Sequence record: NC_101835.1
DNA: 64,000 bases
Reading direction: 5' to 3' (one strand)
From: a phage
Under the pieces are notes generated by a model. The model searched no databases and was not told the DNA's origin. It worked only from the letters and a program-made list of their open reading frames with translations. The position numbers and the translations under genes are program-made. This document shows, one piece after another, positions 11,053 to 49,144 of this stretch. Within the stretch, counting starts at the first letter, position 1; each line of letters starts with the position of its first letter.

Positions 11053-11312
11053 ACAATAATTAACTTGTTTACAATCTTTCACTGGCTATGCCAGGTGACC
11101 TTTGGTCACCCCTTCGGGTGTTTCTATGACATAATATAAAAGCAGGGCAACTATTAGAAGATCTATAGTTGCCTTGCTTGTTATGTCATGATTAACTAAA
11201 TACAAGGCAACTATGATCTGATTAATAGATTGCAGACAAACTATCACGGGGGTGATGGTTACTGCTTTTATATTATGTCGCGACTCCGTCGCGCCATGCC
11301 ATTCGTTTGCAT
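11053..11312. repeat. inverted-repeat element bracketed by 19-bp direct repeats
   Basis: CCATGCCATTCGTTTGCAT at 11053-11071 and 11294-11312; inverted arms 11127-11146 and 11262-11279; palindrome 11147-11174; GGCAACTAT 9-mer x4 in alternating orientation. Confidence 0.5.
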
Positions 11313-24154: not shown

Positions 24155-24346
24155 TCACTTGTTGTTAAGAAGTTCTAAAACTTTCTGTTTTACTTTATCA
24201 AGATCTGTTGATTCAAAAACTGTGCGATATCCCCAACTTTGCCCGTAGGAGTGACTGCAATCCCCGTAGCACCATTGCTCAATTTGATAGTATTCAAGGA
24301 ACGGGTGCTGTCTAACTATGATACCATCCCGGTTAAAAATTACCAT
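24155..24346 (-). CDS. hypothetical protein
   Basis: AGAGAGTGATG upstream. Confidence 0.45.
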   Translation of the reverse strand: MVIFNRDGIIVRQHPFLEYYQIEQWCYGDCSHSYGQSWGYRTVFESTDLDKVKQKVLELLNNK

Positions 24347-24409
24347 AATACATCACTCTCTGTTAGTTTATGCATATATTATACACTGCAGTTTTCAGAT
24401 GTCAATCTT

Positions 24410-24604
24410 TTACAGGTTACTCCAGTATAATCGGCATTTACATTTTGGGCAATGAGGTTCTTTTATGTAATAACCATCAGTCTTTGGAACACTTTTTGGT
24501 GCAGTTTTAAGATTGTACCTGGTAAAACATCGGAAGCAGGTTACCTCTCCCACCTGTTGATCGTTGATCCACTCACCAGAGTAAAGCTCTTTCTTGTTTC
24601 TCAT
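24410..24604 (-). CDS. zinc-ribbon-like small protein
   Basis: GGGAGAG before ATG (MRNKKELYS); CFRC ... CPKCKC cysteine pairs. Confidence 0.45.
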   Translation of the reverse strand: MRNKKELYSGEWINDQQVGEVTCFRCFTRYNLKTAPKSVPKTDGYYIKEPHCPKCKCRLYWSNL

Positions 24605-24855
24605 AATTCTCTCCCAAATCCTCTGCAATCTTATACCAAAATCTCCAGCCAGAAAGCACACGGGAACACTTTGAGGATTGAATCTTTACTTGGCTCGGAA
24701 GTTCTTTTTCCGTATGGTAGGTAGAAATACCCTCCTGCAGATTCGAATATAGCTCCTTCGGTTGTATCTACCACAGCAAGAATTAAGATTTTAGTCTCCA
24801 CAGTGCTCTCCTCTCTTAGTTGTTGTGGAGACTATATCACCTCAGAAGATGGTCG

Positions 24856-25254
24856 TCAACACTTTTTGTACTCTACTACAACCACATCAATATCTGTGGT
24901 TGCAAGATTAATTACATCTTCTACATGTTCCCACTTTAGACCGCCAATACCGCATCCGATTTTAGGAATGTAGAACGGCAATGACACACCTTTGAATACC
25001 TCGTTGACTCGCTCAAAACCTTTCATGATTGAGAAGTATTCAGCATTGGGCCCTGGGTAGAACTGGGTATACAGGTTGATTCCATATACGACCCTGTTCT
25101 TGGCAAAATGCTCCCAACAAGAAAACATACCCAGCTTGCCTAGATCACCATAAGCAGTCTCTTTGTCGGCTGCCAGTGCTTGAGGGAACTCACGGGCAAT
25201 ATCTTTCGCTATGCCTGCACCCATTGTGTGAAAGCAGTTACAACCGTGGATCAT
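24856..25254 (-). CDS. macro-domain protein (putative ADP-ribose hydrolase)
   Basis: N-terminal HGCNCFHTMGAGIAKDIAREFP and later IPKIGCGIGGL recall the glycine-rich phosphate-binding loops of TARG1/DarG-type macro domains. Confidence 0.55.
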   Translation of the reverse strand: MIHGCNCFHTMGAGIAKDIAREFPQALAADKETAYGDLGKLGMFSCWEHFAKNRVVYGINLYTQFYPGPNAEYFSIMKGFERVNEVFKGVSLPFYIPKIGCGIGGLKWEHVEDVINLATTDIDVVVVEYKKC

Positions 25255-25304
25255 GTGGCCCGACCCTTTCTTGAAAAGAGAGATTAGATCTCCCCCCTAT
25301 AGTA

Positions 25305-25730
25305 TCAATAATCACGGTATGCCAGCTCCTCTTCCGCAATTTCAAAAAACTCAGTCCAGCACTGTGGCATATTGGAGTTACCGAAGTGGCTTTCATAGTA
25401 AAGGTTCTCACCGCTCGGGAGGTAGAAATCTGTTACCTCGTAGAATCCACAATCGTCGCACTCACCTTCTTCAAACTTGGCCTCAACCTTAATACCGAGG
25501 AAGGTGAAAAGTTTATGGATATCTTCAGTTTCGAACTCCCAGCAAATATTGTTTTCCGCATCGGTATAGAACTGGATCAGCAGACCATTGTCCAGTTTAC
25601 CAAAATACTCTGTGAAGTAACTTCCTTCCCAGAAATCTTTATGACAAATAATATCCATGCGTTTGCCCATAATAATGGTGTGAGCGTTTTGGGCATCGTC
25701 ACGAATCAGTTTTGGCATTTCATAGATCAT
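25305..25730 (-). CDS. hypothetical acidic protein
   Basis: GGAGAA RBS. Confidence 0.5.
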   Translation of the reverse strand: MIYEMPKLIRDDAQNAHTIIMGKRMDIICHKDFWEGSYFTEYFGKLDNGLLIQFYTDAENNICWEFETEDIHKLFTFLGIKVEAKFEEGECDDCGFYEVTDFYLPSGENLYYESHFGNSNMPQCWTEFFEIAEEELAYRDY

Positions 25731-25996: not shown

Positions 25997-26092
25997 GGGC
26001 AGTGGCCTCCTGTTAGTTATACATCCCAGTTTTCTTCGTTCATCACGTCCTCCCGTTTTATGAAGTTATAATTGCACACCTTTCAACCTGTG

Positions 26093-26509
26093 TCAACAGA
26101 AAACTTCAACAAATTCTTCCACAGTTTTAATGTCATGGGAAAAAGGTTTACGGCTATAACGGGCAATAGCACTATCAACCACCGCCCGATACTCAAGATC
26201 TTCAGAATATTTCATGAAGCATTGCAGCGTCTCTGGGCAGATAGCTAAATAGCTCCACCACCCTTCTTCAGATTGGTAGTCGAATCCCATACTCTCCAAC
26301 CATGAAGCATATACTCCAGCACCCTCAAGCCAGTGAGTATTTTCATCCAGAAACTTGTTAACAGACATGTGAGCTTCTAAGCACTTGTCCAGCTCTTTTC
26401 CGTTAACCAGCCACGCACTAACTGTGGCGCATCCAAGGTCTACAGATTGAGTTGACAGGTTGTATTGGTCATAGTTCTCAGGTTTAACAATGATATCTTC
26501 TAATGTCAT
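26093..26509 (-). CDS. hypothetical protein
   Basis: AAGGAGA RBS. Confidence 0.5.
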   Translation of the reverse strand: MTLEDIIVKPENYDQYNLSTQSVDLGCATVSAWLVNGKELDKCLEAHMSVNKFLDENTHWLEGAGVYASWLESMGFDYQSEEGWWSYLAICPETLQCFMKYSEDLEYRAVVDSAIARYSRKPFSHDIKTVEEFVEVFC

Positions 26510-26528: not shown

Positions 26529-26556
26529 AAAAATGCCCCACCCTTTCGGGCAGGGC
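26529..26556 (-). terminator. rho-independent terminator
   Basis: Minus strand hairpin GCCCTGCCCGAAAGGGTGGGGC then TTTTT; identical copy at 38270-38296. Confidence 0.6.
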
Positions 26557-32205: not shown

Positions 32206-34629
32206 ATGGTAATAAATAATACGACGAACACCTTCATCGTACCACCCACGCTTCACCATTTGGTGGTGCATAAGTATCCCAACCAAGTCACACAGCGATG
32301 CACCACCATTCTGTTGATATGCATTAAGTAAAGAGTGTTTAGATCGGGTCCAGATGGCATGACCATCAAAAGAGTAGATAAACTTCTTACCCGTTGCTTC
32401 CCAGAATTTCTCCAGATCCTCTTTACGGCCCTTAAGACCAGGGTTGGCATCCCAAAGCGCATCGATTACCCTTTGTCCCAACTCTGGAGAGATGTCCAGC
32501 ATATCTGCAACTTTATCTTTTTGTGCCCCGTACATAACCCCATACGTGATAGGTTTACCGTCGTTACGGGACACCTCTCTACCTGCTACTTTTGTATATG
32601 CCTCAGCATTGTTTTGGTGTGCGTCCCCGTTACTTACAACATCGTAATACAGGCCGTTGTCGAACTCAAAGGCACCCCAAGCCCCGATAAGCTGCTCTAA
32701 GTTGGACCCGTCAATACCGATCTCAAAGTATCCCGGAGGAACACCCCACAGACTACGCATCTCTTTACCCATAACCACTTTAGGAGATGGTTTAGGCATG
32801 TTTGCACAAATACTGTGTTTCTGTCTGGAAGTGTTTGTTAATCCAGAGCTTTTAGCAGGAAGCTTATGGTCAATCTTCAAACGTGGGTGATTAAGAAGAC
32901 CAGTGTCAACCTTATCCTCCTTGATTGGATCAAGTACCGATCTGCGGTTTCGCAATGATAACCATAAGACGATATCTTTAGCCATCTCTCCGTTCAATTT
33001 TTCAAGATTCGGACACAGGTGTCCAAACGTATCTTTCAGTTGCGGAGAAGTAATAAGTGCCCTAGCTTTTCTACGTATTTTCCCGAATACTTCCTTTTTA
33101 ATCCTTTCGGAGTTAGGAAAGCTTCGGAACTTGTGCACTGTTGTCTGAAACTTAGCATCAGTTTTGTTCCAGAAGTTGATAATTAGGTCACAATACTCTG
33201 ACTCTAAAAGCTCGTCCATGTATGCATATACTCGTGCATCAACATCTGCATCAGGTAGAGCTTTCTTCTTGCTGTCTTTAGTTACATCCTTAGTTCTCCA
33301 CATTGTCGGAAGCCAACCAGCACTGATCAGGTATCGCTTAATGTCGTCCTGATTGCTGATTTTCATAGGTATCTTGCAGTCAGGCATTCGCTTCTGCTGC
33401 AGATCGCTTATTGCCTGATCCATCAGCTCTTTAGGCAAAGGTTGTGGTGTGGAGGTGCCCTTAATATAACCTCTCAAGAAATCAGCCATCTTGTCGGGGT
33501 CTTTGCAGCCCATCTCTTCACACCATTTTATCCCCATCTTACTGACATCTCCTGTGGAGGTAAATGCTCTCTTAGGCGGGGCTTTGAACTCTAGAGCGCT
33601 CATGTCTACAGGATAGCCAAGCTTATCTTTTAACCATTTCCAACCATTATTAGAGATTGTCCCGTCTTGGTTAAACGGCTTTTCAGGGAACTTGGGCCGC
33701 TGAGACATTGACAGCTCTTTTAAAGGCAGTTGTGGTTCAACACGATCAGCGATTTCTTTCATCCACGCATCGCAACGGTCACGTAAAGCAATAGCTCCAT
33801 CTATGTCGAAGTATACACCCTGACGGGCCTGCAGCTCCATCAGGAAGTGCTGCAGCATGCCTCGACGTAATGCGTTCTTCCAGGTGATCTTCTTGAACCC
33901 TTTCGGCTTCTCTTTGGCAGGATCGTACATAAAGTTCTGCATGTCAGATTTGCCGTAGAATACACCTTTTGATTCCGCTACCAGTTCTTTCCAGAGCAGC
34001 TCCTGGATGATAACGTCCTCAAATACACGATCCACATACTTCCACAACGGAAGATCGCGCCAGTCATCAATTTGAACTTTCTGGTTACCAAGGGCATAGC
34101 CCCATGCCATAAGGCCGTGGGGACCAACAGGCTGCATTTTCTTAGTAACCGGGTTGAATACAGCGTCCGGACAACCTTTTGGTAAAGGGCGATCAGGCCA
34201 CAAGATTCGGCTCATCGCCAACGTATCAAACAGGTTAACCTGGTGGTCGTTGATAGTCCCCATGCATTTAGGATCACGGAACATATCAAAATGAATACCG
34301 GATAATCTTTCCATCAGCATAAAGTCATAACTGTAGCAGTTATGGCAGTTCAAAGCTGTTGGTGACCAGTCGGAATTGCCTGTAAGCCAACCTTCCAACT
34401 CCGAAAAATCTGCTATGCGAACTTCAAAACCTTTATAAAGAGTTTTCTTTGCCAGAATGAAGTTCTTAGCCTTTTCTATATCCTCCTCGGAGTAGTGTGT
34501 GCGGTCATTTAGAGGAAGGAACAGCATAAAACGGTTCTTATTCAGCTCTTTAAACAGGCCGCAGTGATAATAAAGATCTGGATCTTCCAAAAGCCCTGAG
34601 GCCTCCAGATCGAAGCACCAATTACTCAT
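32200..34629 (-). CDS. DNA polymerase (family A, T7 gp5-like), N-terminal 808 aa / putative exon 1
   Basis: N-terminal FDLEASGL..HCG exonuclease motif like T7 gp5; motif A region IGIDGSNLEQL; motif B KPITYGVMYGAQ; ORF stops at ..RIIYYHK, i.e. at motif C. Confidence 0.85.
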   Translation of the reverse strand: MSNWCFDLEASGLLEDPDLYYHCGLFKELNKNRFMLFLPLNDRTHYSEEDIEKAKNFILAKKTLYKGFEVRIADFSELEGWLTGNSDWSPTALNCHNCYSYDFMLMERLSGIHFDMFRDPKCMGTINDHQVNLFDTLAMSRILWPDRPLPKGCPDAVFNPVTKKMQPVGPHGLMAWGYALGNQKVQIDDWRDLPLWKYVDRVFEDVIIQELLWKELVAESKGVFYGKSDMQNFMYDPAKEKPKGFKKITWKNALRRGMLQHFLMELQARQGVYFDIDGAIALRDRCDAWMKEIADRVEPQLPLKELSMSQRPKFPEKPFNQDGTISNNGWKWLKDKLGYPVDMSALEFKAPPKRAFTSTGDVSKMGIKWCEEMGCKDPDKMADFLRGYIKGTSTPQPLPKELMDQAISDLQQKRMPDCKIPMKISNQDDIKRYLISAGWLPTMWRTKDVTKDSKKKALPDADVDARVYAYMDELLESEYCDLIINFWNKTDAKFQTTVHKFRSFPNSERIKKEVFGKIRRKARALITSPQLKDTFGHLCPNLEKLNGEMAKDIVLWLSLRNRRSVLDPIKEDKVDTGLLNHPRLKIDHKLPAKSSGLTNTSRQKHSICANMPKPSPKVVMGKEMRSLWGVPPGYFEIGIDGSNLEQLIGAWGAFEFDNGLYYDVVSNGDAHQNNAEAYTKVAGREVSRNDGKPITYGVMYGAQKDKVADMLDISPELGQRVIDALWDANPGLKGRKEDLEKFWEATGKKFIYSFDGHAIWTRSKHSLLNAYQQNGGASLCDLVGILMHHQMVKRGWYDEGVRRIIYYHK

Positions 34630-49115: not shown

Positions 49116-49144
49116 ACTATATCGGAGATTTAGAGTAAAGTCAA
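49116..49144 (-). promoter_or_regulatory. sigma70-like promoter (TTGACT-N17-TATAGT), leftward
   Basis: Minus strand TTGACT (49139-49144) and TATAGT (49116-49121). Confidence 0.5.

Follow-up and report, generated by a model that had tools for sequence, protein, structure and literature searches.

The stretch of DNA analyzed (64,000 nucleotides, NC_101835.1, called the window here) belongs to a Vequintavirus, an rV5-like myophage of E. coli. In the region of interest the genes are on the minus strand, and a 3-kb stretch around the inverted repeat described below matches 118 phage records with 80%–99% identity. The genes and the elements of the repeat are as follows.

24856..25254, minus strand: macro-domain gene (Pfam Macro and phrog_335), homolog of rV5 gp209, T4-type Tk.4
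24631..24801, minus strand: gene of 56 aa, function not assigned, homolog of rV5 gp208, with a GTG start
24824..24834, minus strand: 5′ arm of the repeat, TAGTCTCCACA; TAGT (the last 4 nt of a −10 hexamer), then CTCCACA
24803..24823, minus strand: loop of 21 nt, ACAACTAAGAGAGGAGAGCAC, containing the Shine–Dalgarno run GAGAGGAGAG
24792..24802, minus strand: 3′ arm of the repeat, TGTGGAGACTA; one leader base, GTG GAG ACT, and the first A of AAA

The gene pair and the inverted repeat

The product of the upstream gene, gp209 in rV5, is called Tk.4-like in the rV5 paper (PMC3606486). In the window this gene is split. An extra G, compared with Murica and Gotham, is present in a run of Gs at about 25296–25301 (minus strand) and puts the first ~20 macro codons out of frame, giving two ORFs (25238–25411 and 24856–25254) where the relatives have a single gene of 152 aa. 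A sequencing error in the homopolymer would explain the split, as would a genuine frameshift.

The downstream ORF, which the original prediction had listed as a possible ORF of 57 codons, corresponds to 24631–24801 (56 aa and a stop) and is, judged from its sequence, a real and conserved gene. It matches phrog_15268 over its full length (E = 3.5e-43), its rV5 homolog gp208 is listed in Table S3 of the rV5 paper (PMC3606486), and it is annotated in most relatives. The variable columns are distributed as 11/5/25 over the three codon positions, a third-position bias, and the N-terminus METKILIL is invariant among the aligned relatives. The start codon is GTG in the window and ATG in 47 relatives. 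In Murica (positions 1690–1806 of that sequence, L001), the gp208 ORF is cut to 38 aa by a frameshift in a G-run (CAGGGGGGG vs. CAGGAGGG), which points either to a dispensable gene or to another homopolymer error. A further ORF of 56 aa, on the plus strand (24803–24973), was rejected as spurious; it is antisense to the macro-domain gene and has no ribosome-binding site. Sixteen records (MG0656xx) named “Campylobacter phage,” with Campylobacter jejuni as host, are 86%–99% identical to this E. coli Vequintavirus locus. The label is unexpected for the genus and may reflect contamination or mislabelling.

The inverted repeat is perfect, with arms of 11 bp at 24792–24802 and 24824–24834 of the window sequence and a loop of 21 nt between them; the 11-mers TAGTCTCCACA (24792–24802) and TGTGGAGACTA (24824–24834) are fully complementary. 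Both 11-mers and their complementarity had been correctly recognized in the original prediction, but with coordinates that were slightly off (24787–24797 and 24822–24832). Its placement of the repeat just 3′ of the macro-domain gene is borne out on the minus strand. Across the junction, the gene strand reads ...AAG TGT TGA CGACCATCTTCTGAGGTGATATAGTCTCCACAACAACTAAGAGAGGAGAGCACT GTG GAG ACT AAA.... The CTCCACA of the 5′ arm runs up to the predicted transcription start (see below), and the 3′ arm encodes codons 1–4 (M-E-T-K) of the 56-aa ORF, with the GTG start at 24801–24799. The Shine–Dalgarno run GAGAGGAGAG occupies 24815–24806 (minus strand), with the GGAG core 6 nt before the start codon. 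The repeat overlaps the start of this ORF, with the GTG inside the 3′ arm; the ribosome-binding site is in the loop and not in the stem.

A predicted promoter at the end of the macro-domain gene

The 5′ arm also belongs to a conserved sigma-70 promoter of the extended −10 class, a point absent from the original prediction. The elements of this predicted promoter, called P208 here, and the nearest strong promoter upstream are listed below.

24831..24859, minus strand: predicted sigma-70 promoter P208, TTGACG-17-TGaTATAGT
24859–24854, minus strand: −35 hexamer of P208, TTGACG
24839–24838, minus strand: TG of the extended −10 of P208
24836–24831, minus strand: −10 hexamer of P208, TATAGT, separated from the −35 by a spacer of 17 nt
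A24824, minus strand: predicted transcription start, 7 nt past the −10 hexamer (alternative: A24826)
26068..26096, minus strand: nearest strong sigma-70-like promoter upstream, TTGACA-17-AATTAT with TG

P208 matches the consensus at 10 of the 12 hexamer positions, in addition to the extended −10 TG and the 17-nt spacer, and the stop codon TGA of the macro-domain gene (24858–24856) is inside its −35 hexamer. The start was placed at A24824 from the spacing that is standard in E. coli sigma-70 promoters. The 5′ arm ends with this residue, and an RNA made from P208 would carry at most 1–3 nt of that arm. Across 12 sequences (the window and 11 relatives), there is no variation in the −10 hexamer or in the 17-nt spacing, and in the −35 hexamer TTGAC(A/G) the sixth base alone varies; about half of the spacer positions (about 8 of 17) differ between the two main clades. 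Fixed hexamers and spacing around a diverging spacer are the usual signature of a working promoter, although coding constraint could account for part of the conservation of the −35 hexamer, which shares bases with the Cys and stop codons of the macro-domain gene. At the same site, the GenBank record of Gotham has an annotated PhagePromoter prediction.

In the rV5 paper, 33 promoters, including P205, and the terminator t213 are described, with none ahead of gene 208 (PMC3606486). In the window, rV5 P205 falls at 24405–24378 and t213 at 26556–26535. P208 resembles two of the promoters in rV5 Table S4, P010 and P156 (Kropinski et al. 2013, PMC3606486), with an A-rich stretch and GTG followed by TTGAC(T/G)-17-TATAGT; their counterparts in the window are at 49144 (minus strand) and 7092 (plus strand). 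Like the rV5 early promoters of the E. coli sigma-70 extended −10 type (TGnTATAAT), P208 precedes a small early gene and is on the gene strand. It differs from the published rV5 promoters by its absence from the list of 33 and by the overlap of its −35 hexamer with the stop codon of the upstream gene. A literature search found no transcript mapping or transcriptome for any Vequintavirus. The practical gain is one of annotation: rV5-like phages have a well-supported predicted sigma-70 extended −10 promoter within the final codons of their macro-domain gene. New with respect to the published rV5 list, it would give gp208 and the small genes downstream a transcription unit of their own.

Between 24000 and 32000, all 11 promoter-like sites scoring at least 10/12 are on the gene strand, and there are 30 sites at 9/12 or better, compared with 15.0 ± 3.8 in shuffles. 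For the promoter at 26068–26096, the scan gave no terminator-like site between it and the hairpin, and it likely feeds read-through RNA across genes 211–209 into the hairpin. At 24378–24405 (minus strand), the same position as rV5 P205, there is a perfect consensus sigma-70 promoter, TTGACA-16-TATAAT, ahead of a gene of 63 aa (24155–24346). The gene just before that promoter (24410–24604) contains a phage zinc-binding domain (PF23903).

The stem in the window and among relatives

The length of the repeat alone is no more than chance gives. In first-order Markov simulations of the window, with loops of 3–40 nt, perfect 11-bp inverted repeats occur 0.78 times per 64 kb and at least one is present in 44 of 100 simulations; the actual window has three distinct ones in the same range of loops. 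One of the three (32261–32308) is inside a gene of 809 aa and, for that reason, was taken as a chance occurrence; another (11165–11214) belongs to a separate cluster of non-coding repeats. The 91-nt region around the repeat folds no better than its shuffles (z = −0.83). The complementarity between the −10/+1 region and the start-codon region was also compared at the 24 promoter-to-gene junctions of the window, in a test designed post hoc with the repeat already known. Only the gp208 junction exceeds 7 nt; at the other 23, just 2–7 nt are complementary to the start-codon region of the gene, and the design does not recur. By our own post hoc estimate, 11 contiguous complementary bases at any of the 24 junctions have a probability of roughly 6e-4. 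Such a one-off is readable as an outlier or as a design that the phage does not generally use.

The exact 43-nt hairpin is found in 13 of the 118 relatives, and another 58 have 1–4 differences from it. The 47 relatives of the ATG clade give no match to it and have 2–3 mismatches in the stem, though they keep the same promoter and gene. In the group with a GTG start (rV5, Murica, FV3, and others), there is mostly a T for the C at position 5 of the arm, which gives a U·G wobble, and some members have a G at position 11, which gives a G·U wobble. In the group with an ATG start (FFH2, JES2013, Gotham, isim, and inoa), A·A and C·A mismatches occur, with a third mismatch in inoa. Over nine distinct sequences, seven of the 11 pairs are invariant, two vary on one side only, and two are unpaired in most sequences; no pair (0/11) has changed on both sides in a compensatory way. 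The energy of the hairpin alone, −15.1 kcal/mol in the window, is −12.5 in rV5 and Murica, −7.8 in relative L002, and −5.8 in FFH2. When seven relatives with an ATG start were folded, the hairpin was missing from the minimum-energy fold in five and present in a weakened version in L002 and L003.

No distant gp208 homologs that could serve as outgroups for polarizing the stem substitutions were found beyond the same 118 Vequintavirus records. By parsimony, given that L002 and L003 share ATG with the ATG clade, GTG at the start and C at 24830 in the window are derived states. The perfect repeat is accordingly of recent date and confined to a single sub-lineage. Since METKILIL is invariant, coding constraint alone accounts for the conservation of the 3′ arm. 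Among the relatives, conservation extends to the hexamers of the promoter, to their 17-nt distance, and to the gene itself, but not to the stem. The promoter, the ribosome-binding site, and the gene are almost certainly functional.

As the 5′ arm belongs to the predicted promoter P208, the RNA started there would be unable to form the stem. The computed energy for opening the start site (−18 to +12) is 12.0–12.7 kcal/mol in the read-through RNA and 6.2–6.5 kcal/mol in the promoter-initiated RNA. The read-through value ranks 55th among the 160 ORF starts of the window (mean 10.2, sd 4.0), and relatives of the ATG clade reach 9–11 kcal/mol through unrelated folds. By these calculations, the start of gp208 is predicted to be masked to a degree that is ordinary in this genome.

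Origin and possible roles of the repeat

We favor, with a probability of about 0.6, the view that the repeat is the overlap of two ordinary signals, each under its own constraint, and that a selected structure is improbable. The end of the macro-domain gene would contain a host-type (sigma-70) early promoter of the extended −10 class, from which the gp208 homolog is expressed. The 5′ arm would then be set by the end of the −10 hexamer and the bases leading to the transcription start, and the 3′ arm by the start codon and three further codons. The baseline throughout the genus would be complementarity at about 9 of the 11 positions, within reach of chance, and in the lineage of the window two or three single substitutions (ATG to GTG at 24801, A/T at 24829, and T to C at 24830) would have raised it to 11 of 11. 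The RNA started at about A24824 would lack the 5′ arm and have an open leader of 23 nt, and the read-through RNA from the macro-domain gene would form the 11-bp stem (−15 kcal/mol) covering the GUG, with the ribosome-binding site in the loop. Translation of gp208 from read-through RNA would be moderately reduced, in this sub-lineage only. At most, the stem would modestly reduce how much of an accessory protein is made from read-through RNA, and this only in some members of the genus.

Several observations weigh against such an incidental overlap. Eleven contiguous complementary bases are rare for a given junction (the post hoc value above, over the 24). Both arm substitutions of the GTG clade preserve pairing as wobbles (U·G at position 5 and G·U at position 11), the derived change from ATG to GTG weakens the start codon while it closes a C·A mismatch, and the T-to-C change in the window converts a wobble into a C–G pair. 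A run of changes that strengthen the stem is also expected under selection for the hairpin. The evidence for a selected function of the hairpin is nevertheless weak. The original prediction had proposed a regulatory structure controlling the small gene, and the geometry for it is right. The rest of that proposal fares less well: the stem is perfect in only 13 of the 118 relatives and broken in 47, compensatory changes are absent, the two arms are explained by the −10 hexamer and the invariant M-E-T-K, and the masking is ordinary for the genome.

If selected, the hairpin could be a translational gate like those of T4. In the T4 genes e (lysozyme), soc, 49, and I-TevI, an inhibitory RNA helix is present at the translation start (McPheeters et al. 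1986, reviewed in PMC3014915). In T4 the proximal promoter is a late one and the gate thereby provides temporal control, with lysozyme synthesis cut ~100-fold; similar inhibitory structures are predicted in close relatives of T4 (PMC3014915). By analogy, the read-through RNA would fold and mask the GUG, and gp208 would be translated only from the RNA of its own promoter, located within the 5′ arm, the gate having a recent origin in the GTG clade. We regard a selected gate of this type as possible but doubtful. Its geometry does match the T4 cases with a proximal promoter in the 5′ strand of the inhibitory helix (PMC3014915): the start codon is in the predicted helix, the 5′ strand is encoded at the proximal promoter (the predicted −10 ends at 24831 and RNA from A24824 would be without that strand), and the proximal-promoter RNA would stay open. 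The stability of the 11-bp stem is in its favor, as are the ~6 kcal/mol of additional cost for opening the start site in the read-through RNA, the co-occurrence of a weak GTG start with a strong stem, the outlying position among the 24 junctions, and the 71 relatives of 118 that retain the 11-position stem with at most wobbles or few differences. However, the stem is absent or weak in the 47 relatives with the same promoter and gene, exact copies are restricted to 13 of 118, and covariation is missing; the opening energy of the start site (rank 55 of 160) is not exceptional, and the gene itself seems dispensable (frameshifted in Murica, absent in two contigs described below).

The comparison with T4 also fails in the promoters. 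The one at 26096 and P208 both fit the sigma-70 consensus, so that distal and proximal promoters appear not to differ in temporal class and the early-versus-late logic of T4 is not evident here; in rV5, the late-type motif TggTAaAAtA is found only upstream of the late genes 27–66 (PMC3606486). Unlike in the T4 gates, the Shine–Dalgarno sequence is left in the loop and the stem, known here by prediction, is specific to one lineage. That a young gate is now evolving, the substitutions ATG to GTG and T to C at 24830 having turned a chance 9/11 complementarity into a switch like that of gene e, is an unlikely reading. If it were true, an accessory ORFan would be expressed only from transcripts of its own promoter, a natural example of how a gate originates. 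More generally, if the hairpin gates translation, the T4 logic of a promoter inside an inhibitory hairpin would extend to an unrelated phage genus, and the variants C/T at 24830, G/A at 24801, and T/A at 24829 would form a natural allelic series for the evolution of the gate. The interest would be modest and for specialists, with no major question opened.

The hairpin could instead act on the message of the macro-domain gene, as a terminator or attenuator (PeSL-like), a stabilizer of the 3′ end, or an RNase processing site. Its position directly 3′ of that gene, in a region that behaves like a hyperplastic early region, would fit such a role, and the stem-loops of T4-type PeSLs can overlap the −10 box (PMC2839356). 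But the stem is not rich in G/C tracts, is not conserved, and reaches into the codons of the next gene, and its 11 bp are too short for a typical RNase III site. A rho-independent terminator was rejected, given the 21-nt loop, the tail AAAAUCUUAAUUC without a U-tract, and the absence of a call in the terminator scan. No Rfam family was found in 24300–25300, even at E ≤ 1. A role at the 3′ end is, on these grounds, very improbable. Equally remote is an operator, in which a dimeric phage or host regulator would bind two 11-bp half-sites flanking the transcription start and the start codon and would repress P208. The dyad is perfect, one half-site covers the −10/+1 region (a classic operator position), and the centers are 32 bp apart, about three helical turns; yet the 21 bp between the half-sites are unlike typical operators, and the symmetry is broken at 2–3 of the 11 positions in the 47 relatives, which do retain the promoter. 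The arm is absent from every other promoter of the window. Near-copies of it in the 64 kb occur only at 2943 and 38201, with one mismatch each, and both are within coding ORFs, which eliminates a dispersed operator motif and leaves the protein-binding dyad suggested earlier without support.

The surroundings of the hairpin nevertheless share features with PeSL cassettes. In RB49 and phi1, these have terminator stem-loops with G/C tracts upstream of the Shine–Dalgarno sequence (Arbiol et al. 2010, PMC2839356). The stem-loop falls anywhere from upstream of the −35 up to the transcription start; the motif as a whole, ~100 bp long, is conserved and recurs at many sites (PMC2839356). As in a PeSL, a strong sigma-70-like promoter is found here between small non-essential early genes, a stem-loop touches the −10 box, and the content of neighboring genes varies with junctions at promoters. 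Unlike a PeSL, the gp208 stem has neither the G/C tracts of a terminator stem nor a U-run. It covers both the ribosome-binding site and the start codon and is present a single time, its arm not being repeated in regulatory positions.

The neighborhood behaves like a hyperplastic early region: a promoter precedes almost every small gene, and the gene content differs between relatives. The variation downstream of the macro-domain gene maps, in three relatives, as follows.

L014, 342–554; L008 and L009, 342–542 (coordinates of the relatives): variation in gene content downstream of the macro-domain gene

In two IMG/VR contigs (L004 and L005, at ~1890–1990), genes 206–208 are absent and the macro-domain gene abuts a P205-like promoter, which in L005 is followed by gene 205. 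In rV5 and typing phage 5, an additional gene of 70 aa (gp207) is present downstream of the macro-domain gene. In inoa and isim, the small ORF that corresponds to gp208 has 66 aa and overlaps the next gene. The location of these gene-content junctions at promoters recalls, by analogy, the modular shuffling of PeSL type.

A separate cluster of repeats is found in the non-coding segment 11080–11300 of the window, where several copies of GGCAACTAT and ATAGTTGCC occur in both orientations. The segment contains a perfect 12-bp inverted repeat (11165–11176 and 11203–11214, loop of 26). The copies are nested in a larger inverted repeat, CATAATATAAAAGCAG (11130) and CTGCTTTTATATTATG (11263). A cluster of iterons or operators is one possibility for this segment; another is an element resembling an origin, close to divergent promoters.
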